From Bacteroidales bacterium (GTDB taxonomy: Bacteria; Bacteroidota; Bacteroidia; Bacteroidales; VadinHA17): a DNA stretch of 64,000 nucleotides. The DNA lies in the NCBI GenBank assembly GCA_030596125.1, contig JAUVKT010000001.1, positions 28,860-92,859 of the forward strand, in the 5' to 3' direction. Positions 16,379-62,493 of this stretch are shown piece by piece. The translations under genes and the position numbers were made by a program. How positions within the stretch are numbered: position 1 is the stretch's first letter; every line of letters begins with the position of its first letter. The notes beneath the pieces were generated by a model. The model saw only the letters and a list, made by a program, of their open reading frames with translations. It made no database searches and was not told the DNA's origin.

Positions 16379-19039
16379 ATGAATATCTCTTCGAAGTATG
16401 ATCCTGCCAGTGCAGAGGATAAATGGTATAAATGGTGGATGGACCTGGGCCTTTTCAAGAGTGTGCCGGATGACAGGGAACCTTATGTAATCACCATTCC
16501 TCCCCCTAATGTAACAGGGGTATTGCATATGGGACACATGCTTAACAATACAATTCAGGATGTACTCGTGAGACGTGAAAGGATGAACGGAAAAAATGTT
16601 TGCTGGGTACCCGGAACCGATCATGCCTCCATAGCTACCGAAGCAAAGGTAGTTGCCAAACTGAAAAGTGAGGGTATCGAAAAGAACAGTCTTACAAGAG
16701 ACGAATTCCTCAAACATGCCTGGGAATGGACCGATAAACACGGAGGCATTATTCTGGAACAACTGAAGAGCCTGGGGGCATCATGTGATTGGGACCGTAC
16801 CCTGTTTACTATGGATGAGACCAGGTATGAATCTGTTATAAAAGTATTCGTCGATCTTTATCGTAAGGATCTTATATACAGAGGTGTAAGAATGATTAAC
16901 TGGGATCCTCAGGCTGGCACAGCGGTATCTGATGAGGAGGTTAATCACAGTGAAGAGGATTCACAACTATATTATGTGAATTACAGGATTGCCGGTGAAG
17001 AGGCCTCTTCTGCTGACGCGGGACAGTTTATAACTATAGCAACTACACGTCCCGAAACAATACTGGGGGATACTGCCGTATGTGTTAATCCTGCTGATGA
17101 ACGGTACACTTATCTAAGGGAAAAAAGTGTTATTGTTCCCATGGTCAACAGGGAGGTTCCCATAATCTTTGATAATTATGTCGATCCGGAATTCGGAACG
17201 GGGTGTCTGAAGGTTACTCCTGCCCATGATATCAATGACTATGAAATAGGTTTGCGTCATAAATTACCGGTGATAGATATTTTCAATGATGATGGTACAT
17301 TAAGTAAGGAAGCAGTCCTGTTTGTGGGGACCGACCGGTTTGAGGCGAGAAAACTTGCCCTGGACGAACTTGAAAAGCTGGGTGCTTTAGCACGAACAGA
17401 GGAATATAAGAACAAAGTAGGACGCTCTGAGCGGACCAATGCAATAATAGAACCAAAGCTTTCCATGCAGTGGTTCCTTAAGATGGATAAGCTTTCAAAA
17501 CCGGCCCTTGATGCTGTATTAAATGGTGATGTAAACATCCACCCGCCTAAATATAAAAATGTATATCGCCACTGGATGGAAAATGTACGTGACTGGTGTG
17601 TAAGCAGACAATTGTGGTGGGGACAAAGGATTCCTGCCTACTATTATAATAATGATGAATTTGTTGTTGCAGAGAGTGCAGAGAAGGCTCTTGAGATAGC
17701 AAAAAGTGAGAGTGGAGATCAGAATCTGAGGATAGAAGATCTGCGACAGGATGAGGATGTTCTTGATACATGGTTCTCATCATGGCTCTGGCCTATTACA
17801 AGTTTTAACGGGATACTTGATCCCGGTAACAGGGACATAAAATACTATTATCCGACCAATGCTCTGATAACTGCTCCCGAGATACTTTTCTTCTGGGTAG
17901 CCAGAATGATTATTTCCGGTTATGAATATATGGGCAAGAAACCTTTTAGTGATGTTTATCTGCATGGGCTGGTACGGGATAAGCAGAGAAGAAAAATGTC
18001 TAAATCTCTTGGCAATTCACCTGATCCGCTTGACCTGATAAAAAAATATGGAGCTGATGGTGTACGTGTTGGTATGCTGCTATGTTCTCCTGCAGGAAAT
18101 GATCTGTTATATGACGATAGTTTGCCGGAACAGGGACGAAATTTTGCCAATAAGATCTGGAATGCTTACCGGTTGATAAAATCGTGGGAGATAGATGATA
18201 ATATTAGCCAGCCTGTTTGGTCGGAGATAGCAGGCAAAGCTTTTGATGCAAAATTGTCGGAGGCCGTCATTGCCTATAATAAAGATTTCACAAAGTTCAG
18301 GATTTCCAGTGCTCTGATGATTGTCTACCGGCTTTTCTGGGACGAGTTTTCAAGCTGGTACCTTGAGATTATAAAACCCGATTATAAGAAGCCTGTAGAT
18401 CGGGCTACATACGATCAGGCAATATCCTTCGTTGACAGTCTTATGAGGCTTATTCATCCGTTTATGCCGTTTTTAACTGAGGAGATATGGCAGCATATTT
18501 CAGAGAGGGGAAAAACAGAAAGCATTATGACCACCCCTCAACCGCTCCCTGAAAAGGTTGATGTTAAGATCATGAAGGAGTATGAAGAGGCAAAACAGGT
18601 GATCAGTCTTGTACGGAATGTTCGGAAGAAAAAGAATATAAAAATCCTTGAGAGTCTTGACCTGTTTTTCATGAAAGGCACTGATGCCGGGTCAGGTATT
18701 TTTTCCCCTGTGATAATCAGACTGGGCAATATTGGCAATTTCTCAACAGTTAATGAGAAACCTGACGGGGCTGTTTCATTTATTGTGGGAACGATTGAAT
18801 ATTATATCCCTGTTGGCGAAAAGATGGATGTTGAGGCCGAGGTGAAAAAGCTGAATGAAGATCTTGACTATTACCAGGGGTTCCTGCAGTCGGTTATGAA
18901 GAAGCTTGGAAACGAGAGATTTGTTAATAATGCACCCGCTGATGTTGTAGCGAACGAAAAAAAGAAGAGGATTGATACCGAAACTAAAATCAGGGTTCTG
19001 GAGAGTCGATTGGAAGAGTTGCGGGGATCAGGGAATTAG
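16379..19039 (+). CDS. valS: Valine--tRNA ligase
   Basis: 886 aa. Class I motifs PPNVTGVLHMGH and KMSKSLGN are present, along with an editing domain and a C-terminal coiled coil. Confidence 0.97.
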   Translation: MNISSKYDPASAEDKWYKWWMDLGLFKSVPDDREPYVITIPPPNVTGVLHMGHMLNNTIQDVLVRRERMNGKNVCWVPGTDHASIATEAKVVAKLKSEGIEKNSLTRDEFLKHAWEWTDKHGGIILEQLKSLGASCDWDRTLFTMDETRYESVIKVFVDLYRKDLIYRGVRMINWDPQAGTAVSDEEVNHSEEDSQLYYVNYRIAGEEASSADAGQFITIATTRPETILGDTAVCVNPADERYTYLREKSVIVPMVNREVPIIFDNYVDPEFGTGCLKVTPAHDINDYEIGLRHKLPVIDIFNDDGTLSKEAVLFVGTDRFEARKLALDELEKLGALARTEEYKNKVGRSERTNAIIEPKLSMQWFLKMDKLSKPALDAVLNGDVNIHPPKYKNVYRHWMENVRDWCVSRQLWWGQRIPAYYYNNDEFVVAESAEKALEIAKSESGDQNLRIEDLRQDEDVLDTWFSSWLWPITSFNGILDPGNRDIKYYYPTNALITAPEILFFWVARMIISGYEYMGKKPFSDVYLHGLVRDKQRRKMSKSLGNSPDPLDLIKKYGADGVRVGMLLCSPAGNDLLYDDSLPEQGRNFANKIWNAYRLIKSWEIDDNISQPVWSEIAGKAFDAKLSEAVIAYNKDFTKFRISSALMIVYRLFWDEFSSWYLEIIKPDYKKPVDRATYDQAISFVDSLMRLIHPFMPFLTEEIWQHISERGKTESIMTTPQPLPEKVDVKIMKEYEEAKQVISLVRNVRKKKNIKILESLDLFFMKGTDAGSGIFSPVIIRLGNIGNFSTVNEKPDGAVSFIVGTIEYYIPVGEKMDVEAEVKKLNEDLDYYQGFLQSVMKKLGNERFVNNAPADVVANEKKKRIDTETKIRVLESRLEELRGSGN

Positions 19040-43059: not shown

Positions 43060-44445
43060 ATGACACTTATTAAATCAATTTCCGGAATAAGAGGGACAAT
43101 AGGAGGTGCTCCTGGTGAGGGACTTAGTCCGATTGACGTAGTTAAGTTCACCTCAGGTTATGGTGAGTGGATTAAAAGAAAAGGTAATAAAGACAGCAGG
43201 ATGATAATTGTTGGTCGTGATGCCAGGGTATCGGGTGATATTGTAAACAGACTGGTTACTGCAACGCTTAACGGAATGGGTCTTGATGTGACAGATATTG
43301 GAATGGCAACAACCCCAACTGTTGAAATGGTAGTTATCCATGAGAATGCCAGAGGAGGTATAATCCTTACAGCAAGCCATAACCCGGAAAACTGGAATGC
43401 CCTGAAGCTACTTAATGAAAGTGGTGAATTCATCTCTGATGCCGATGGCAGGGATATACTCACAATTGTTGAAAATAATGATTTTTTATTCTCAGAAGTT
43501 GATAATCTTGGCAAGATAATTACGAAGCCCGGTTATGAAGAGCTTCATTTTAACAGGATAATCGACCTTCCTGAAGTTGATATTGATGCTATCAGGTCGG
43601 CAGGGTTTACGGTAGCAGTTGACGGAGTAAATTCTGTTGGTGGTACTGTTGTACCGGATCTGCTGGAAAGACTGGGTGTGAAATCGGTTATCAGGGTGAA
43701 TTGTGAACCAACGGGTCATTTTTCCCATAATCCCGAACCTCTTCCGGAGAATCTCGGTCAGATTGTTTCTGCTGTTAAGGAGAGCGGGGCAGATGTGGGA
43801 TTTGTTGTAGATCCTGATGTCGACAGGCTGGCAATAGTTAACGAAGATGGCAGCCTCTTTAATGAAGAATATACTCTTGTTGCCTGTTCAGACTACATAC
43901 TTTCAAAGAGAGCAGGTAATACTGTATCAAACATGTCGTCAACAAGGGCATTACGGGATGTTACCAGTGTGTATGGCGGAGAATGGTATGCTTCAGCGGT
44001 GGGGGAGGTAAACGTAGTAAAAAAAATGAAGGAGGTTAATGCTGTCATTGGAGGGGAAGGAAACGGAGGCGTGATATTTCCGGCTCTTCATTATGGCAGG
44101 GATGCCCTTGTAGGTATAGCCCTTTTCCTGTCTCACCTTGCGCAATCGCGTCTAAAATGTTCTGAACTGCGATTTAAGTATCCTCAATATGTTATATCAA
44201 AGAATAAGATTAGTTTACCCGAAGGAACAAACCCTGATGCTATTATAGAACTCCTGGCAGTTGAGTATGAAAAGTCGGTAGCCAATAGTGATGATGGATT
44301 ATTGCTTGAAATTGAAGGCGGCTGGGTACAGGTTCGCAAATCAAATACAGAACCGATTATTAGAGTCTATTCGGAGGGTAACAACCAGGCTGATGCAGAT
44401 AGCCTGGCTGCCGGAATCATAAAAAGTGTTAAAAATCATCTTTGA
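43060..44445 (+). CDS. glmM: Phosphoglucosamine mutase / phosphohexomutase
   Basis: It has the active-site loop TASHNPENWNALK, the metal-binding motif VVDPDVDRL, and the four-domain length of 461 aa. Confidence 0.85.
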   Translation: MTLIKSISGIRGTIGGAPGEGLSPIDVVKFTSGYGEWIKRKGNKDSRMIIVGRDARVSGDIVNRLVTATLNGMGLDVTDIGMATTPTVEMVVIHENARGGIILTASHNPENWNALKLLNESGEFISDADGRDILTIVENNDFLFSEVDNLGKIITKPGYEELHFNRIIDLPEVDIDAIRSAGFTVAVDGVNSVGGTVVPDLLERLGVKSVIRVNCEPTGHFSHNPEPLPENLGQIVSAVKESGADVGFVVDPDVDRLAIVNEDGSLFNEEYTLVACSDYILSKRAGNTVSNMSSTRALRDVTSVYGGEWYASAVGEVNVVKKMKEVNAVIGGEGNGGVIFPALHYGRDALVGIALFLSHLAQSRLKCSELRFKYPQYVISKNKISLPEGTNPDAIIELLAVEYEKSVANSDDGLLLEIEGGWVQVRKSNTEPIIRVYSEGNNQADADSLAAGIIKSVKNHL

Positions 44446-44588: not shown

Positions 44589-44603
44589 ACCACGGGATTA
44601 ATA

Positions 44604-44779
44604 GCCTGATTAATTCATAAGTTTTTCGTCATGAAAAGTCAAAGTACACAGAATAAAGGTAAGCGCAGATTTGAGACTCACAGATATAGCCATAGCTATA
44701 TTGAGAATCGAAAATCGAGCATTGCCTTTAGTCACAGTAATTTGACTTCGTAATAGATCAATTTGTGAATTATTCAGGC
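44604..44779 (+). mobile_element. MITE-like palindromic dispersed repeat, copy 1
   Basis: The 174-bp core (44605-44778) matches 57228-57401. By my manual alignment there are 15 substitutions and no indels. It has terminal inverted repeats (CCTGATTAATTCATAAGTT… / …CAATTTGTGAATTATTCAGG) and TA dinucleotides on both flanks. No transposase gene lies in the window. Confidence 0.65.
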
Positions 44780-44799
44780 TAAATTAATAAACAAGAAAA

Positions 44800-46206
44800 A
44801 TGAGAAAGACATTACTTATTTCAGGAGGCATAGTTATTGTCGCCATAATAGCTCTGGTTATTTTCAACAGGCTTACCAGAACCGATGACAAGACCTTCCT
44901 TTATACGGAAGCAAAGATGGGATTATTTGAAATATTGGTTACAACTACCGGCGAATTGCAGGCAGAGAATTCTACTGAGATAAAGGGGCCGGACGGTCTG
45001 GGCAGTCGTAATATGAGATTCAGAAATATTCTTATCCAGGATCTTATTCCTGAAGGTACTGTTGTACAGAAAGGCGATTATGTTGCAACACTCGACAGGT
45101 CCGACGCAGATAACACCTATAAGGATGAACTTGACAAGCTTGAGTCTGCAGAGAATGACTATACGATGAAGATGCTTGATACAACAATTACCCTGGGTGA
45201 CCTTAGGGACGATCTCATTAACCTGAAATATAATATGGAAGAGGCTGAAATTACACTGGAACAGTCAAAGTATGAGCCTCCGACCACTATACGCCAGAAC
45301 AGGATAAATCTGGATAAAACAAAAAGAGGTTACGAGCAGGCACAGAAAAATTATGTGCTAAAGGTTCAACAGGCTAAAGCTGATGTCAGGGAATCCCGGC
45401 TTGAACTACAGAAACAGAGAAATAAGGTTGCTGAGATGGAACGGGTACTGAGTCAGTTTACAATTACTGCACCGGCGCCGGGAATGGTAATTTATAAAAG
45501 AGAGTGGGGAGGAGAAAAGCGTAAAGTAGGATCAAATATCAGTCCGTGGGACCCGGTAGTGGCTACCCTCCCTGATCTTTCGGTCATGATATCCAAGACG
45601 TATGTTAATGAGATCGATATCAGTAAAGTAACTACGGGACAGAGTGTGCGTATTACTGTTGATGCATTCCCTGATAAAAGATATAGCGGGACAGTTTTAA
45701 GTGTTGCCAATATCGGAGAGCAGTTGCCAAATACCGATGCAAAGGTCTTTGAGGTGATTATCAAGATAGAAGGTTATGATCCCATTTTAAGGCCTTCGAT
45801 GACTACAGGTAACCAGGTAGTAACCAATGTGTTTGAAGATGCAATTTATATTCCTCTTGAGTGTGTTCATGCTACTGAGGATAGTATTCCTTATGTGTTC
45901 AAAAAGAATAATTCACGACAGGTTGTTGTCCTGGGTGCATCAAACGAGAATGAGGTTATTGTAGAGCAGGGTCTTAAACATAAAGAATCAGTCTATTTAA
46001 GTTTGCCTGAAAATGCTGAGAATTTTAAGCTGGCAGGCAACGACTTAATAGAGGTGATTAAGAGCAGAGAGAGGGAAAAGCGTGAGAAGGAGCTTGAACT
46101 TGCCCGTCAGAATAACCGGCGGGAAGGAATGAAATCGCAGCAGAATAATTCTGAAATGAGAGAGCGTGGTGCACGCCCCGGCGGTGGAACAACCGGTTCT
46201 AAATAA
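44800..46206 (+). CDS. HlyD/MacA-type periplasmic adaptor (membrane fusion protein)
   Basis: It has an N-terminal TM, a long coiled-coil hairpin region and a beta-barrel domain. It is followed by a MacB-type permease and a TolC-like gene. Confidence 0.8.
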   Translation: MRKTLLISGGIVIVAIIALVIFNRLTRTDDKTFLYTEAKMGLFEILVTTTGELQAENSTEIKGPDGLGSRNMRFRNILIQDLIPEGTVVQKGDYVATLDRSDADNTYKDELDKLESAENDYTMKMLDTTITLGDLRDDLINLKYNMEEAEITLEQSKYEPPTTIRQNRINLDKTKRGYEQAQKNYVLKVQQAKADVRESRLELQKQRNKVAEMERVLSQFTITAPAPGMVIYKREWGGEKRKVGSNISPWDPVVATLPDLSVMISKTYVNEIDISKVTTGQSVRITVDAFPDKRYSGTVLSVANIGEQLPNTDAKVFEVIIKIEGYDPILRPSMTTGNQVVTNVFEDAIYIPLECVHATEDSIPYVFKKNNSRQVVVLGASNENEVIVEQGLKHKESVYLSLPENAENFKLAGNDLIEVIKSREREKREKELELARQNNRREGMKSQQNNSEMRERGARPGGGTTGSK

Positions 46207-55041: not shown

Positions 55042-55754
55042 TGGCTAATACATGGTTTGATTTTAAGCAGTTTCGGGTGTGTCAGGAGAAGGCGGCATTT
55101 AAGGTGGGTACAGATGGAGTGCTTCTTGGCGCCTGGGTTGACCTGTCAGGTGCAGAGAGAATCCTTGATATTGGGACAGGAACAGGCCTCATTTCGCTTA
55201 TGGCAGCACAACGTTCAGAAGCATTGATAACTGCTATTGAACCCGATGAGGAATCAATGCTGGAGGCAGCCGTTAATTTTAATAAAAGTCAATGGAGTGA
55301 AAGAATAGTTATTGTAAATATGAAGCTCCAGGATTTTGCCCCGGTAGCTAAGGTCAGGTTTGATATTATCATTTCCAATCCTCCCTATTTTACTGCATCT
55401 CTGAAGAACCCGGATCGCAGGCTTAGTATGGCAAGACACAATGAAACTCTTTCTCCGGAGGAGTTGTTTGAAGGGGTCGGGAATTTGTTATCAGATGATG
55501 GCAGATTCTCTGTTATCCTTCCGTATGAGGAGGCAAATATTTCTATAGCTGTTGCTGCCGGATATAAACTATACTGTAACAGGATGTTAAATATTAAACC
55601 TCTTCCCTCAAAACCGGTTAAGAGGGTGTTGCTGGAATTCGGACGAATAAAAAAGCCACTTGATACAGGTTACCTGATAATCGAAATCAATGGACGCCAT
55701 GATTACAGCAGGGAGTTTATCAACCTTACAAAAGATTTCTACCTTAATCTTTAG
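55041..55754 (+). CDS. tRNA (adenine37-N6)-methyltransferase-like SAM-dependent methyltransferase
   Basis: It has the SAM-binding motif ILDIGTGTGLISLM and the N6-adenine MTase motif ISNPPYF. The size and layout resemble YfiC/TrmN6. Confidence 0.7.
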   Translation: MANTWFDFKQFRVCQEKAAFKVGTDGVLLGAWVDLSGAERILDIGTGTGLISLMAAQRSEALITAIEPDEESMLEAAVNFNKSQWSERIVIVNMKLQDFAPVAKVRFDIIISNPPYFTASLKNPDRRLSMARHNETLSPEELFEGVGNLLSDDGRFSVILPYEEANISIAVAAGYKLYCNRMLNIKPLPSKPVKRVLLEFGRIKKPLDTGYLIIEINGRHDYSREFINLTKDFYLNL

Positions 55755-57090
55755 CCTGATCAATAAAATCTGAAAGAGGAAGGCCAAACTCCTCTATTAT
55801 TTTAATACCAAGTTTCTCAAGCTGATCAAGTACAGGATTATATATTTCAGGTATAACAGGTATATGAACGCCGCAAATTCTTATCTCTTTACGGAGTATC
55901 ATCTCTGCTGCTATGGCTGCCGGTAGTCCTACTGTTCTTGATATGGAAGTGTTTGTTTCAGGTGATCCGTAATCAATCATATGTGAACTGATAACCTCTT
56001 TTCTCCCATCCGGATATATTACCTTAAAAAGATGCTGAAGAACAATCATATCCCTCTCATTTTTACTCAGCATCATCTTTTTGATCATCATGTCAGAGAT
56101 GATCTCAAAAGGAGAAGATTCTGCATACCCCATATCTTTATCTTCAAGGAGACCAAGCCACCGGAATGCTTCCACAGTAATTGCACCATTCCCGATATCG
56201 AGATAGTCAGTTAGCCTGTTTAACAGACTACCATCCCCTTCAGGTAAAAGGCCTGAAAGAAAATCGGAATAGGTTCTGTTTGAATAATCAGAAACATTCC
56301 TGTCAAGCATGTTGAGGCTCTTCATTGAATCGAGAATCTCACACCAGCCAATATGTCTGTATGTTCCCCTGTATATTGTTTCGGTTTCGGGTATGCCGTA
56401 GATATCAATATAGATTATCGAATCCCTGTTTGGGTAAACCTCAAGTACCCCCACCCCTGGTACTTTATGTCTGAAGCGGTCTTTGAAAAGGTTAATAGGT
56501 TCAATATCCACTCTCTTGCCTTTTATAAGATAACGAGCGTCGCTCCTGCTTGCCAGTATCACCCCTTTGGGGCTCCATGAAAATTTATATCCAAACGGGT
56601 TATTTTTACTCTCAGGAGCGGGCAGGGCTCCGCAAAGTGAGTAAAACTCTATTATTTTACCACCCTCAGAATGAACTTTGTCAATAATACGCATAGCAGA
56701 CATATGGTCAATCCCCGGATCCATGCCTGTCTCATTCAAAAGTATTATACCACTTTCCCTGGCCTGTTTGTCGAGCTGTTTCATCTTCTCCTGAACATAG
56801 GAGGTGGTTACCATTGACTTGCTGTGTTCAATGCATACACTGGCAACTTGCACATGGAATTTATAAGGCAGAAGACTCACTGCCAGGTCGCACCCTGATA
56901 TAAGATCATTGAGAGTGCTGATGTCTCCGGCTTCCCAGTAGACAGAACTTCCGTTTGGATGGCCATTCAGGATATGTTTGGCTCTGTCCATTGTATTTGA
57001 TGCAAGAACTATTTCAAACCCTGCTTCAAGAAGATATTCCACAAGCGGTTTTGCTACCATGCCGGTACCTAAAACAACTACTTTCTTCAT
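55744..57090 (-). CDS. Saccharopine dehydrogenase family protein
   Basis: 448 aa. An N-terminal Rossmann motif (KVVVLGTGMVAKPLVEYL) is followed by a saccharopine-dehydrogenase-like C-terminal domain (…NETGMDPGIDHM…). Confidence 0.7.
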   Translation of the reverse strand: MKKVVVLGTGMVAKPLVEYLLEAGFEIVLASNTMDRAKHILNGHPNGSSVYWEAGDISTLNDLISGCDLAVSLLPYKFHVQVASVCIEHSKSMVTTSYVQEKMKQLDKQARESGIILLNETGMDPGIDHMSAMRIIDKVHSEGGKIIEFYSLCGALPAPESKNNPFGYKFSWSPKGVILASRSDARYLIKGKRVDIEPINLFKDRFRHKVPGVGVLEVYPNRDSIIYIDIYGIPETETIYRGTYRHIGWCEILDSMKSLNMLDRNVSDYSNRTYSDFLSGLLPEGDGSLLNRLTDYLDIGNGAITVEAFRWLGLLEDKDMGYAESSPFEIISDMMIKKMMLSKNERDMIVLQHLFKVIYPDGRKEVISSHMIDYGSPETNTSISRTVGLPAAIAAEMILRKEIRICGVHIPVIPEIYNPVLDQLEKLGIKIIEEFGLPLSDFIDQAKD

Positions 57091-57180: not shown

Positions 57181-57226
57181 CATTACCTGATATAGATTTC
57201 AACAATAAATTAAAACCACTTTCTTA

Positions 57227-57402
57227 ACCTGATTAATTCATAAGTTTTTCGTCATGAGAAGTCAAAGTACAAAGAATAAAGGTAAGCACAGATTTTTGAC
57301 TCACAGATATAGCCATAGCTATATTGAGAATCAAAAATTGAGCATTGCATTTAATTTAAGTAATTTGGCTTCGTAATAGAACAATTTGTGAATTAATCAG
57401 GT
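57227..57402 (+). mobile_element. MITE-like palindromic dispersed repeat, copy 2
   Basis: It is in the same orientation as copy 1. The first 13 bp of its TIR are perfect (CCTGATTAATTCA / TGAATTAATCAGG). It is flanked by TA (…CTTA|A…T|TAAC…). A central 7-bp-stem hairpin ATATAGC-CATA-GCTATAT is conserved in both copies. Confidence 0.65.
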
Positions 57403-57481
57403 TAACAGTTTGCTTCATTGTATATTTGTCTGAACGATACATTATTGTTGTCAGGATAAGTATCTGTTTAGTAACTATATA

Positions 57482-60094
57482 ATGAAAGAGCCGAGAAAGT
57501 ACGCTGAAACACCCCTGATGAAGCAGTATTATAGTATCAAGGCGAAACATCCTGATGCAGTTTTGCTTTTTCGGGTAGGTGATTTCTATGAGACTTTCGG
57601 AGAGGATGCCATTCGAACATCAGAGATACTGGGAATTACACTTACACGGAGAGCCAATGGCGCTGCATCATATGTCGAACTGGCCGGATTCCCGTATCAT
57701 GCTATTGACACATATCTTCCAAGGCTTGTCAGGGCAGGCCAGAGAGTTGCAATCTGTGAACAACTGGAAGATCCGAAGCTGACAAAGAAGATTGTAAAAA
57801 GAGGAATTACAGAGTTGGTAACACCGGGTGTCTCTCTCGACGATAATGTCCTTGATCATAAAGAAAATAACTACCTGGCATCGGTTCATTTCAGAAAAAC
57901 AATTGCGGGTGTGGCCTTCCTGGATATCTCTACCGGTGAGTTTCTTGCAGCAGAAGGAACAGTGAGTTATATCGATCAGTTGTTAACCAGTTTTGCTCCC
58001 AAAGAGGTGCTGTTTGAGAAGGGGAAAGCTGACAGCTATCGTGAAATATTCGGCTCAAAATACTATACTTTTAAACTCGACGACTGGATTTATACACTCG
58101 AAGCGGCTAACGATCGTCTTGTTAAACATTTTGGAACAAAATCCCTGAAAGGTTTTGGTGTTCATGGAATGGATTACGGGATTATTGCAGCAGGTTCAAT
58201 TCTTCATTACCTCGATCTTACAGAGCACAAACAGCTTGATCATATTACAATGATTTCGAGAATTGAGGAGGATAGTTATGTCTGGCTCGACAAGTTTACA
58301 GTGAGAAACCTGGAACTGTTTCACACACCATACGAAGGTGCGGGGACACTGTTAGGTGTGCTTGACAAAACAATTGGCCCGATGGGAGGCAGGATGCTGA
58401 AAAAATGGATATCCCTGCCTCTTAAGGATATAGACCAGATAAACTCAAGGCTTGACGCCGTCAGTTATATAATAGATAATGAGGAGTTCAGGGACGAGCT
58501 GTTAAATGGTATCGGAACAATCGGTGACCTTGAGAGGCTAATCTCAAAAGTTGCTACAAACCGTATTAATCCAAGAGAGGTGGTTCAGCTTAAAAGGGCG
58601 TTAAATGCGATAATTCCGATTAAGGATTCATGTATTGCCACAGGTTGTGAACCGGTTGTGCAAATAGGAGGTAAGCTGGATGGGTGCAGCCTGATAAGCG
58701 AAAGAATAGACAAAGAACTAACAGAAGATCCACCTGTTATGATCAACAGGGGAAATGTGATAAGGAATGGTGTTTCGGAAGAGCTGGATGATCTGAGGGA
58801 GATACTGACAACAGGAAAAAACTGGCTGATTGATCTTCAGAAGAGAGAGAGTGAACGAACTGGAATTACAAGTCTTAAGGTGGGGTTTAATAATGTATTC
58901 GGTTATTATATCGAGGTAAGGAATACACATAAAGACAAGGTTCCTGAAGAGTGGATAAGAAAGCAGACACTTGTCAGTGCTGAACGATATATCACTGAAG
59001 AGTTAAAGGAGTATGAGAGTAAGATTCTTGGAGCTGAAGGGAAAATACTGAGCCTTGAGCAGGAAATTTTCGGGAGTCTTGTTGATGCATTACTTGAATA
59101 TATTACCCCCGTTCAGCTTAATGCAACACTTATTGCCAGGCTCGATTGTTTCTATTCACACGCTCTGGTATCACATGAGAACAGATATGTAAGACCAGAG
59201 ATCAACGACAGCCTGGTAATAGAAATAAAAGAAGGGCGGCATCCGGTGATAGAACATCACCTGCCACCTGATGAAGCTTACATACCTAATGATCTGTTCC
59301 TGGATAACAAGGAGCAACAGATAATTATTCTTACAGGTCCGAATATGTCGGGTAAATCGGCTGTGTTACGGCAGACAGCCTTAATAGTGCTGATGGCACA
59401 GACCGGTTGTTTTGTTCCGGCTTCGGAGGCCAGGATTGGCCTGGTTGATAAGATCTTTACCAGGGTAGGAGCATCTGACAATATTAGTCTGGGAGAATCG
59501 ACTTTTATGGTAGAGATGAATGAAACAGCCAGTATCCTTAATAACCTGTCAGACCGCAGCCTGGTTCTCCTTGATGAGATAGGAAGAGGAACGAGTACAT
59601 ACGATGGTATATCCATTGCATGGGCTATGGTTGAGTATCTTCATGAATACCGGTATAAAGCAAAAACCCTTTTTGCAACTCACTATCACGAGCTTAATGA
59701 GATGGAAAACTCATTTCCAGCGGTTAAAAATTATAATGTTTCTATTAAAGAGCTGAATGATAAGATAATCTTTCTTCGTAAACTTAAAAGAGGGGGTAGT
59801 GAACATAGCTTTGGGATACATGTTGCCAGGATGGCCGGTATGCCTGGTAGTCTTGTGAGGAGAGCAAATGAGGTACTCACAGAGATGGAGGGAGGAGACA
59901 GTGACAGCAAGCTTTCAAAGCCGGTTGCCGGTATTGCCTCAGGTCGTGAGGGTATGCAACTGAGTTTCTTTCAGCTCGACGACCCGGTACTTAAACAGGT
60001 AAGAGATGAGATTGCAGGCCTCGATCTGAATAATCTTACTCCTGTTGAAGCCCTTAATAAACTCTACAATATCCAGAAACTTATCAGAAAATAA
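57482..60094 (+). CDS. mutS: DNA mismatch repair protein MutS
   Basis: 870 aa. It has an N-terminal mismatch-binding motif ([34 protein letters not shown]), Walker A GPNMSGKS, and [12 protein letters not shown]. Confidence 0.97.
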
Positions 60095-60154: not shown

Positions 60155-60180
60155 CTCTCTCATATCACTACATCAATCTA

Positions 60181-60267
60181 CATCTGCCATTCGCCATTTA
60201 CCATTTGACATTTGACATTTGACATTTGACATTTGACATTTGACATTTGACATTTGACATTTGACAT
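60181..60267. repeat. Heptamer tandem array: 3 degenerate units plus 9 perfect CATTTGA units
   Basis: Read directly, it is CATCTGC CATTCGC CATTTAC followed by (CATTTGA)x9 and a partial CAT. It lies in the convergent gap between the mutS and permease 3' ends. Confidence 0.97.
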
Positions 60268-60273
60268 ATCTTC

Positions 60274-62493
60274 CTACTCTATCTCCAGCCTGTCATGTGA
60301 GTTTACGAAAAGAATAGTCCCCATATCATCGTATCCTGAGAAGATAGTCTCTCCATTATGTTTTAATGTGTCGCCTCGGAATCCGATCAGAGTGAGAGCA
60401 GCCTCTGATGATTTACTGCTGATAAGCTTTTTTGCCGACAGGTCCTGCTGTTCAATTATTATTTCGATGTTCTTTTTGGTTATAGGAAGCCGGCCCTCAT
60501 TAATAAGTTTTTGACTGTTTTTCACTGTTTCATCGTACTGCTCAGGTTTACAAATGTCAAATATTTTAAAATTTGCCTTTTTCCAATCCGGATGTCCTGT
60601 AATAATGAAACTAAGCATAATCATCAGGTTGGCATTATATTCATCGGTCGATTTTATCCATACATGGATACCGTTTTTGTAGGTTATCTTTCGGCTGCTT
60701 GTTCCCAGAATACATACATCAAAATTACCGGCATTGATAAGTGCATAATTCTCTATGATCTCTTTGATGTCATCTGGATTATCCTTGTCATATTCAAAAA
60801 TTACCATATTGTTTTCCATGCCGGCAATACCTGGAACCTGTATGGCCTGGGCGATTGCAGAGGTATATGAAGGGGATATTATCGTATCAACATAAACATG
60901 ATTTTCAATCTTGTCAAATGAGTTTATTAGTTTCGAAAGTTCCTCTTCTGCCTGCAGGTGGGTACTTTTTGAATAGTAACCTTTTATCCTGTGCAGGTAT
61001 GTGCCAAACCCATATTTATAAGATATCCAGTTCAGTAGTTTAAAAGCTGTGTCACGCTCGAAGGACTTCTTTGAAATACAGATTGCACTTGGCCTCCATT
61101 CATGCTTTGTCTTTTTCCCTTTGGATTTTTGAAGATACACCTGCAGGTTCCTGTTTAGCTGGAATAATGCATTGGCAAAGATAGACTCCAACCCCTGCCT
61201 GTTCCTGTGGTAATAATTTATAAAAAGGTATATCAGTACCATCATTACAATGGCCGCCGCCGCGTAGGTAGTGTTAATCTTGAACATTACCCATATCGAG
61301 ATCAAAAATCCGGCAAGTGAAAAATACCACCTCGATTTGAATGATGGCCGATACGATGGACTTGATCCAAAATGATTAAGAAAAGATATAAGGCATAGTG
61401 AGCCATAAGTTACCATAAAGAACATTGATATAATCTCTGCAACAGCATTCACGTTACCCAACGAAACAAATACAAATGCAATAATTACAGTAATCAGGGA
61501 TGCATTTGCAGGTTCTCCGTCTTCCTTTCTCCCCCTTGAAAGCCACCTGTTAACTTTAGAGGAAGGGAATGAACTGTCATTTGCCAGTGCCTGTAAGGTT
61601 CTTGGGGCTACCATAACAGAACCTATGGCTGATGATATAGTTGAGGCAGCCAGCCCAAGAGGAATAATAAACGCTCCGCCAATTGCAATTTTGCCCATTA
61701 TAAGCTGATTACCTGTAAGATCATCGACGCTTACAGAAAGGGCGAGTTTATAAATTATAAACACATAAACAACCATACCAATAAGAGTTGCCGATGTAGT
61801 GCCAAGTGGAATAGATTTGGATGGATTTTTCAGATCACCCGACAGTCCAACCCCGGCGGTCATGCCGGTAAAGGCAGGAAATACAATTGCAAATACAACA
61901 AAGAAACTCTCCCTGTTGCGAAAGGCTGCGTTTGAAAGATTAAATGATGAGTTTGCCGCATATTCTGTTGATCCAAGGAAAAAAAGTGTAATTGATACTG
62001 CCAGGATAGCCACGACAATGTAAAGGGTTTTTACTCCCATATTCGCACCTTTCTTAAGGATTAGTATTCCCAGTACGGCCATGGCCGGAATACTTATTAT
62101 CTGCCTGGGTAACAGAATACCCGTCTTGTCAAGTATAAAATCAAAAAAGAATTCGAATGCTTCGGTAAAGGCTATCACATAGAAAGCGACGCTTATTGCC
62201 TGTGAAAAGAAGAGTGCAATTCCTATGGTGGCCCCGATATTCAGTCCGAACGAACGACTGATAATGAAATACTCACCCCCGCCCTCAACCCGTTTATTTG
62301 TAGCCAGCTCAGAAATAGCAAGCGCAGTAGGAATAGTGACCATATGGCCCAGTAGAATAATACATATAACACCCCAGAAACCTAGTGTGCCTACTGCATA
62401 CCCAAACCTTAGAAACAGTATTGCTCCAAGTATTGTGGATATAGCTGTAAAAAAGACGGGTGCAGTCCCAAACCTCTTTGACGAAGTTGACAT
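60274..62493 (-). CDS. APC-superfamily permease with large cytoplasmic C-terminal domain (cation-chloride cotransporter/SLC12-like)
   Basis: 739 aa. It has a 12-TM core with a CCC-like TM1 motif (FGTAPVFFTAISTILGAILFLRFGYAVGTLG). A ~300-aa soluble C-terminal domain follows. Confidence 0.7.
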   Translation of the reverse strand: MSTSSKRFGTAPVFFTAISTILGAILFLRFGYAVGTLGFWGVICIILLGHMVTIPTALAISELATNKRVEGGGEYFIISRSFGLNIGATIGIALFFSQAISVAFYVIAFTEAFEFFFDFILDKTGILLPRQIISIPAMAVLGILILKKGANMGVKTLYIVVAILAVSITLFFLGSTEYAANSSFNLSNAAFRNRESFFVVFAIVFPAFTGMTAGVGLSGDLKNPSKSIPLGTTSATLIGMVVYVFIIYKLALSVSVDDLTGNQLIMGKIAIGGAFIIPLGLAASTISSAIGSVMVAPRTLQALANDSSFPSSKVNRWLSRGRKEDGEPANASLITVIIAFVFVSLGNVNAVAEIISMFFMVTYGSLCLISFLNHFGSSPSYRPSFKSRWYFSLAGFLISIWVMFKINTTYAAAAIVMMVLIYLFINYYHRNRQGLESIFANALFQLNRNLQVYLQKSKGKKTKHEWRPSAICISKKSFERDTAFKLLNWISYKYGFGTYLHRIKGYYSKSTHLQAEEELSKLINSFDKIENHVYVDTIISPSYTSAIAQAIQVPGIAGMENNMVIFEYDKDNPDDIKEIIENYALINAGNFDVCILGTSSRKITYKNGIHVWIKSTDEYNANLMIMLSFIITGHPDWKKANFKIFDICKPEQYDETVKNSQKLINEGRLPITKKNIEIIIEQQDLSAKKLISSKSSEAALTLIGFRGDTLKHNGETIFSGYDDMGTILFVNSHDRLEIE

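Follow-up and report, generated by a model that had tools for sequence, protein, structure and literature searches.

A mobile 174-bp palindromic element with 4-bp target duplications at two loci of a Bacteroidales genome

Two copies of a palindromic element in intergenic spacers

We analysed a 64,000-nucleotide stretch of a Bacteroidales genome (assembly GCA_030596125.1, contig JAUVKT010000001.1, positions 28,860 to 92,859 of the forward strand), called the window below, and studied a 174-bp palindromic element without an open reading frame (ORF) that is present in it twice. Copy 1 is intergenic, between glmM (43060-44445) and the gene for a YknX/HlyD-like efflux adaptor (44800-46206; Pfam PF25990), and its right end lies 21 nt from the ATG of the adaptor gene. 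Copy 2 occupies a divergent intergenic region, with a saccharopine-dehydrogenase-like gene (55744-57090, minus strand) on one side and mutS (57482-60094) on the other. Each copy is directly upstream of a gene in the same orientation. The two copies are collinear and differ by 15 substitutions and no indels (91.4% identity), counts and coordinates that agree with an earlier, sequence-only reading of this DNA. The pair is also the longest direct repeat of the window in a repeat scan (D1; 181 nt, 91%), and a search with an nhmmer family profile found no third copy in the window. The features of the copies, including their terminal inverted repeats (TIRs), are as follows.

44605-44778, + strand: copy 1, 174 bp, the older insertion (nhmmer E-value 1e-28)
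57228-57401, + strand: copy 2, 174 bp, the recent insertion
44605-44617, + strand: left TIR of copy 1, CCTGATTAATTCA
44766-44778, + strand: right TIR of copy 1, TGAATTATTCAGG, with one mismatch to the left TIR, at the W position of the family
57228-57240, + strand: left TIR of copy 2, CCTGATTAATTCA
57389-57401, + strand: right TIR of copy 2, TGAATTAATCAGG, a perfect 13/13 complement of the left TIR
44601-44604, no strand: left target duplication of copy 1, ATAG, decayed
44779-44782, no strand: right target duplication of copy 1, CTAA, decayed
57224-57227, no strand: left target duplication of copy 2, TTAA, intact
57402-57405, no strand: right target duplication of copy 2, TTAA, intact
44683-44702, + strand: tip stem-loop of copy 1 in the predicted fold, GATATAGC-CATA-GCTATATT, with an 8-bp stem and a CATA loop
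57306-57325, + strand: tip stem-loop of copy 2 in the predicted fold, GATATAGC-CATA-GCTATATT
44625-44636, + strand: left subterminal motif of copy 1, TTcGTnnnGAnA, element positions 21-32
44747-44758, + strand: right subterminal motif of copy 1, cGnAnnAGA, element positions about 143-154

Inverted-repeat ends and a long imperfect hairpin had been proposed for the element, and both were borne out. The whole-element hairpin has a predicted minimum free energy of -68.3 kcal/mol in copy 1 and -67.0 kcal/mol in copy 2, with z-scores of -11.3 and -10.6, respectively, and 0 of 200 shuffled sequences were as stable. The repeat scan detected the arms of copy 2 (57224-57250 and 57379-57405; I5) as 27 nt that are 89% complementary, flanks included.

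A conservation profile of 102 aligned copies of the family described below showed invariance or conservation of 90% or more at every position of 1-14 and 162-174, with the exception of the W position 169 in the right repeat. Within the 13-bp TIR, no variation was seen at positions 2-5 and 7-13, and conservation was 90% or higher at positions 1 and 6. The family ends read CCTGATTAATTCA...TGAATTAWTCAGG. Inside these ends, T21, T22, G24, T25, G29, A30 and A32 of the left motif and G146, A148, A151, G152 and A153 of the right motif are nearly invariant. Both motifs (positions 21-32 on the left, 145-153 on the right) reach at least 90% conservation. The right motif differs from the inverted left motif, and the two stand opposite each other in the predicted fold, forming a conserved internal loop of the hairpin. 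The interior of the element is variable, and subfamily consensus sequences are 54-74% identical. This combination of conserved ends and a variable interior is a profile typical of a transposon.

Target duplication, empty sites and mobility

The 4-mers flanking the element, immediately left of CCTG and right of CAGG, were identical in 77 of 121 elements. Left and right agreed in 80, 93, 93 and 82% of elements at the four successive positions, compared with 21-28% at neighbouring control positions, and the agreement at the first and fourth positions was seen although the composition of each is about 50/50. CTAA (26), TTAG (25), CTAG (22) and TTAA (20) were the commonest 4-mers, giving the consensus YTAR, and rare 4-mers outside this consensus matched on both sides as well, as in ATAA/ATAA (L012; fetched loci and contigs are cited by their L numbers) and TCAG/TCAG (L013). 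No other duplication length fitted the 121 elements. The target duplication is 4 bp of the form YTAR, with TA as its core. We also tried a model with an 8-bp duplication and rejected it, as matching 8-mers were found in 0 of 121 elements.

These results bear on the classification of the element as an IS630/Tc1-mariner-type miniature inverted-repeat transposable element (MITE) of 176 bp that duplicates TA, which the sequence-only reading had reached by adding one base to each side (G...C in copy 1, A...T in copy 2). IS630 elements target CTAG or NTAN and duplicate TA. The TA noted beside both copies is present, its conservation exceeds 90% on either side of the elements of the family, and in IS630/Tc1-mariner MITEs, as here, TA is the centre of an often CTAG-like target. 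However, those MITEs duplicate TA only, whereas in this family the bases beside TA are direct repeats in the 80% and 82% of elements given above, and the bases just outside the 174 bp are complementary in 48%, which is the level of chance. Since the added bases repeat directly and are not complementary, the element proper is 174 bp, CCTG...CAGG, and the extra terminal base belongs to the duplication. Duplications without TA such as TCAG/TCAG, the 4 bp seen at empty sites and ends that resemble IS1595 and not IS630 also speak against the IS630/Tc1-mariner assignment, which we consider extremely improbable.

The mobility of the element was observed directly at both window loci, where orthologous sites without it were found. 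The Logan contig SRR31636559_33333 (L151) encodes a saccharopine-dehydrogenase-like protein 99% identical to that of the window and lacks copy 2. The spacer from this gene to mutS is 213 nt in L151 and 391 nt in the window, and an alignment of ...CTTTC-TTAA-CAATTTGC... in L151 with ...CTTTC-TTAA[174 bp]TTAA-CAGTTTGC... in the window shows that exactly 178 bp, the 174 bp and one TTAA, are missing from L151, with a single TTAA left. Copy 1 is absent from three relatives (L152, L153 and L154) whose adaptor proteins are 84-86% identical to that of the window. They keep the gene order rluB-like/glmM/yknX/macB with glmM-yknX synteny intact, have spacers of 183-189 nt, and in L154 the empty junction, GAATTA-TTAG-ATTAATAAAT, holds a single TTAG. 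Empty sites also occur within one metagenome-assembled genome (MAG), OFTM167, where the element lies within another repeat whose uninterrupted paralogues have a single tetranucleotide. Here the empty GGCAAT-CTAA-GCTTTC (L115) compares with the filled L064 and the empty AAGTGC-TTAA-TGCAC (L031) with the filled L006, and a further case lies within L076.

Precise presence and absence at orthologous sites, together with the target duplications, identify a mobile element. Copy 2 is a recent, strain-polymorphic insertion, since it is absent from the strain with the 99% identical protein and its TTAA duplication and TIRs are perfect. The decay of its duplication (ATAG/CTAA) and its absence from the relatives with 84-86% identical adaptor proteins mark copy 1 as an older insertion. 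With its degraded duplication and TIR mismatch, copy 1 fits the view of a decaying, MITE-like mobile element taken in the sequence-only reading, which the TIRs, the target duplication, the decaying interior and the many copies in many genomes uphold. The outcome named there as a refutation, two copies only and no empty sites, is contradicted on both points, by at least 118 loci elsewhere and by empty orthologous sites for both window copies. The element has TIRs at its exact ends, a target duplication and empty sites, and it is small, non-coding and multi-copy, as MITEs are. Taken together, these results make it very likely that both copies are non-autonomous DNA transposons, 174-bp MITEs that insert at YTAR and duplicate 4 bp.

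The only public contig with an identical YknX-like protein (L119, from Logan SRR18936874) ends 17 nt upstream of the gene. This break, at the edge of the MITE (window 44783-44799), is as expected at a repeat, and the element breaks up short-read assemblies of the window organism. The organism has few sequenced relatives: after the identical sequence, the next matches to the adaptor are 84-86% identical, and after the 99% identical strain variant, the next match to the saccharopine-dehydrogenase-like protein is 64% identical. In addition, the window contains a tandem array of about 14-16 units of 7 nt (ACATTTG/CCATTTG; repeat family D2) at 60166-60277, where mutS (stop at 60094) and a minus-strand ORF (60274-62493) face each other with their 3' ends; the array could be a slippage-prone tract.

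The element family in at least three phyla

In a scan of one genome per species, the terminal-repeat pattern CTGATTAATTCA-N(130-160)-TGAATTAWTCAG matched at least 118 loci, distributed over about 35 assemblies. Carriers among the matches listed included Bacteroidales, Marinilabiliaceae, Prolixibacteraceae, Lentimicrobiaceae and Cyclobacteriaceae. Two Verrucomicrobia MAGs had at least 38 and at least 13 loci, and several Lentisphaeria MAGs were also carriers, while Marinimicrobia, Calditrichota and one deltaproteobacterial MAG had the same ends around a different interior. The nhmmer profile detected at least 164 copies in the fetched loci, at least 130 of them full length, with up to 7 matches, some on both strands, in a single 8-kb locus. 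Element lengths peak at 173-177 bp with the outer C and G and at 171-175 bp without them. Clustering at 75% identity gave 22 clusters, 10 of which show full-length homology to the window copies. The nearest foreign copies among the matches listed (L018 and L075) are 87% identical to the window copies; the best match outside the element, between L073 and window 16496-17625, is only about 68% identical. The family spans at least three phyla, Bacteroidota, Verrucomicrobiota and Lentisphaerota. Neither the window nor the elements in 12 loci had an Rfam match at the gathering score or a relevant one at E-value thresholds, and a literature search for the TIR string returned unrelated papers only; the family is apparently undescribed so far.

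Copies occur in unrelated contexts and in both orientations, and nested insertions are seen. Internal deletions have produced derivatives 62 bp or about 120 bp long that still have the two ends, with matching 4-bp flanks (TTAG, CTAA, CTAG), at the following sites.

L031, about 1056-1117: deletion derivative
L094, 1430-1551: deletion derivative
L110, 5075-5199: deletion derivative
L112, 1436-1560: deletion derivative

Other elements of about 160-185 bp share the 13-bp ends and the YTAR flanks but have unrelated interiors. Their hosts are Marinimicrobia, Draconibacterium, Bacteroidales, Prolixibacteraceae and a deltaproteobacterial MAG, and some hold a second, internal TIR-like mini-hairpin (GGTGATTAATTCATGAGCTCATGAATTAATCAGG). 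These elements suggest that one type of transposase serves several MITE families.

L009, 1958-2134: element with unrelated interior
L057, 6696-6880: element with unrelated interior
L096, 7139-7321: element with unrelated interior
L107, 2352-2528: element with unrelated interior
L017, 6363-6539: element with unrelated interior
L103, 1419-1584: element with unrelated interior
L089, 2463-2636: element with unrelated interior
L093, 7644-7803: element with unrelated interior

The Verrucomicrobia MAG OFTM167 also contains many copies of another repeat, which is about 160-190 bp long and belongs to an unrelated family. The MITE has repeatedly inserted into this repeat, and the same CTAA site was hit twice (L064 and L022). 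The nhmmer profile gave weak partial matches to it (scores 19-40), and it may be a distant relative without TIRs. Its copies include the following.

L115, 5035-5194: second repeat of OFTM167
L046, 1798-1958: second repeat of OFTM167
L076, 4835-5021: second repeat of OFTM167
L022, 1483-1628: second repeat of OFTM167
L011, 5121-5306: second repeat of OFTM167

On the Bacteroidales chromosome OZ245940, a copy (L101, 6397-6567) lies 116 nt downstream of glmM, a gene that also precedes copy 1 in the window. Common ancestry of these two copies was considered and rejected, as the flanks and the downstream gene differ, and they look like independent insertions into the same kind of spacer. Five of the six copies detected on OZ245940.1 have the same orientation in record coordinates, too few to judge a replication-strand bias.

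L042, L091, L098, L101 and L116, + strand: copies on OZ245940.1
L117, - strand: copy on OZ245940.1

Candidate mobilising enzymes, strand-specific hairpin and known systems

We searched for the enzyme that moves the MITE in several ways. In the 118 loci, TIR pairs lying 300-7000 bp apart with matching flanks were MITE pairs, fragments and composites only. The ORFs bracketed by TIRs or other inverted repeats proved to be ordinary genes in Pfam searches (asparagine synthase, LtrA, MFS, TPR, SpoU and GlmM), and all-vs-all clustering of the locus ORFs revealed no repeated transposase. Searches by tblastn with IS1595-family fragments and three full-length IS1595 transposases, and with an IS5 InsH sequence, found nothing in the loci or the window; for these two families this agrees with the sequence-only reading, which had seen no transposase in the window. 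The element had no BLASTN match in plasmids, a TIR scan of viral contigs gave 7 chance matches, and the 13 matches of a metagenome scan that combined the TIR with the [FY]R[FY]N[RH] C-terminal motif in reverse complement were likewise due to chance.

The ends of the element provided a lead. We retrieved IS1595-family elements by tblastn from plasmids (Paraburkholderia, Klebsiella with ISKpn3, and Xanthomonas) and from IMG/VR contigs, and checked the ends of this group, for which the ISfinder subgroup consensus is CcTGATT, on the real IS1595-group elements (L128, L129 and L143-L149). Their ends are CCTGATTAGCC.., CCTGATTACCC.. or CCTAATTATCA.., and the stop codon TAA of the transposase lies 5 nt from the right tip (..TAATCAGG), inside the right repeat. 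The MITE ends, CCTGATTAATTCA, match the first 8 nt of these elements (8/8) and have the same TAA-TCAGG at the right end. Perfect 8-bp duplications were seen in 7 of the 9 loci (those with both ends and flanks), and 8-bp duplications are reported for the IS1595 family (PMC8101967). With its duplication length, the MITE does not qualify as a member of the IS1595 family. Because of the 8 nt and the TAA-TCAGG that it has in common with these elements, the mobilising enzyme would most likely be IS1595-related, with a different, 4-bp stagger. By analogy with these elements, the forward strand of the MITE, that is the + strand of the window, would be the sense strand of a presumed parental transposase, its right end reading ...ATGAATTAATCAGG.

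The duplication, on the other hand, has counterparts in other families of DDE transposases, and the enzyme could instead be of the IS5 group (or IS701- or IS1380-like), with the likeness to the CCTGATTA end being convergent. IS1380 elements have CC ends and 4-5 bp repeats. IS5 ends start with GGAAGG (GGAAGGTGCG...), unlike the CC with which the MITE ends start. A 4-bp duplication on insertion at 5'-YTAR-3' is the hallmark of IS5 (PMC5009759), and the duplication of IS701 elements is exactly four bp (PMC2266710). We tried the IS701 family as a candidate and rejected it, since its duplication length fits but its end consensus, ---YACT-Y--YR (PMC2266710), is not matched by CCTGATTAATTCA. An IS5-like (InsH-like) ORF was not found in the loci, and an 8/8 end identity with the IS1595 group combined with the TAA-TCAGG arrangement is unlikely to arise by chance. 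An IS5-group mobiliser is in our view a doubtful but credible alternative to the IS1595-related enzyme.

Whichever enzyme moves the MITE, its hairpin appears to be maintained across the family. The termini are paired in 116 of 119 elements, with a median folding energy of -62 kcal/mol, and each subfamily consensus has about 80% Watson-Crick complementarity between its arms. Three pairs of the tip stem covary (AU 52, UA 40 and CG 6; AU 53 and GC 47; UA 59 and AU 35). Applied to a MAFFT alignment, RNAalifold recovered no pairing beyond the termini and the tip stem, the interior being misaligned between subfamilies, and the hairpin was judged instead by folding each sequence and comparing arm with arm. 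Where both sides of a pair had changed between subfamilies, 62% of pairs stayed paired, compared with 46-50% when partners were shifted. The sequence-only reading had held that the substitutions between the copies are not compensatory; most changes between the two window copies are indeed unpaired, but across the family the hairpin is kept, with covariation and a strand bias.

This bias is seen in RNA folds of the two strands. In 107 of 119 elements the forward fold is the more stable one, the mean difference being 11.8 kcal/mol (Wilcoxon p = 3e-19, a value that is overstated since the copies are non-independent), and the forward folds hold 776 G·U pairs against 309 in the reverse. The same asymmetry is present in 10 subfamily consensus sequences, in which transition-type mismatches between the arms are, on the forward strand, G·T in 50 and A·C in 13 cases (40 and 10 in the interior alone), and the G·T positions vary from subfamily to subfamily. 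Selection on a single-stranded form would produce such a pattern. Given the G·U excess on the forward strand, the element probably also has a single-stranded form, RNA or single-stranded DNA (ssDNA), that is active or under constraint.

A strand-asymmetric hairpin with a conserved, non-palindromic internal loop near its base could also point to a palindrome of the REP/PATE type, moved through ssDNA by an HUH enzyme (RAYT or IS200/IS605-like). REP/PATE-type elements have no TIR-defined ends and no target duplication, whereas the MITE has both, and its 174-bp size and TIR structure fit MITEs of DDE enzymes. No RAYT or TnpA(Y1) gene linked to the family was seen in the loci, and we regard a REP/PATE origin as very unlikely. 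The same holds for an immobile, selected RNA gene or cis-regulatory hairpin with copies arisen by duplication. The very stable fold, the forward G·U excess, the covariation of the tip stem and the location of both window copies directly upstream of co-oriented genes are what such an RNA would lead one to expect, but it leaves the target duplications, the precise presence and absence, the dozens of copies per genome in both orientations, the nested insertions and the deletion derivatives without explanation, and it has no Rfam family match. The empty sites refute an RNA gene as the sole explanation; the hairpin may have an RNA role in addition to mobility.

For the MITE, we propose that a DDE-type cut-and-paste transposase acting in trans would bind the 13-bp TIRs and the subterminal motifs and make 4-bp staggered cuts in the target. 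The forward strand would be transcribed into a long hairpin, by read-through or from a promoter of its own, or be present as ssDNA, and in the window the hairpins would fall within promoter or 5' leader sequence, that of the efflux operon for copy 1 and that of mutS for copy 2. As copy 1 ends 21 nt before the start codon of the efflux operon, the operon would have to be transcribed from a promoter within the element or further upstream, and the hairpin would then be part of the leader. Inspection of the right end by eye gave no convincing Bacteroidetes-type promoter.

A more far-reaching proposal combines an undescribed transposase lineage, with IS1595-like ends, a 4-bp YTAR stagger and a cross-phylum range, with a forward hairpin that functions as a single strand. 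We offer it tentatively and think it rather improbable in this full form. If it is true, the lineage crossed between Bacteroidota, Verrucomicrobiota and Lentisphaerota, and the forward hairpin with its asymmetric internal loop would be an RNA or ssDNA intermediate in transposition or regulation, beyond a by-product of palindromy. Several points weigh against our interpretation. An autonomous element or transposase with these ends was not found in the 118 loci, the window, plasmids, viral contigs or the targeted metagenome scan. The IS1595 link is a lead drawn from end sequence, and the duplications differ in length, 4 against 8 bp. Copies within one subfamily are non-independent observations, and a strand-biased C-to-T mutation process, the chief alternative to selection, could yield the G·U asymmetry. 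Copies show only a weak tendency to share the orientation of their neighbouring genes, with 27 co-oriented and 15 anti-oriented copies in tandem contexts; a further 12 copies lie in divergent and 7 in convergent contexts.

Two intergenic repeats of the window, one upstream of mutS and one upstream of an efflux operon, are explained as transposon insertions, and insertions at such positions can change promoters or mRNA leaders. The family is abundant and present in distant phyla of sediment and anaerobic habitats, and it can thus serve to trace horizontal transfer and is liable to cause mis-assemblies. With its strand-specific hairpin conservation, it offers a case in which single-strand constraint on a MITE can be tested. 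The combination of IS1595-type ends with an IS5-type YTAR duplication falls outside the current definitions of IS families, which the transposase of this family would refine.

The nearest known systems share one part or another of this picture. The IS1595 subgroup (IS1595, ISXo2, ISKpn3 and relatives) has in common with the MITE the ends that begin with CCTGATTA and the TAA-TCAGG of the right end. Its members are about 1.03-1.09 kb long, encode a transposase with a Zn-finger and a DDE_Tnp_IS1595 domain and make AT-rich 8-bp duplications, whereas the MITE is 174 bp without an ORF, duplicates 4-bp YTAR and has no such transposase beside any copy in the loci. The IS5 subgroup of IS5 shares the 4-bp YTAR duplication, but its ends are unrelated. 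The kind of element is well known from ERIC/YPAL in Enterobacteria, Correia/NEMIS in Neisseria and RUP in Streptococcus pneumoniae, which are intergenic, high-copy hairpin MITEs of 100-170 bp with TIRs. These are reported to duplicate TA, to have hairpins that are co-transcribed with neighbouring genes, and to be confined each to one genus or family. The present family is likewise intergenic, high-copy and hairpin-forming with TIRs, but it differs from them in sequence and ends, in its 4-bp YTAR duplication and in spanning Bacteroidota, Verrucomicrobiota and Lentisphaerota. Its less ordinary traits are thus the spread across phyla at a fixed size and with fixed ends, the pairing of IS1595-type ends with an IS5-type duplication, and the strand-specific hairpin.

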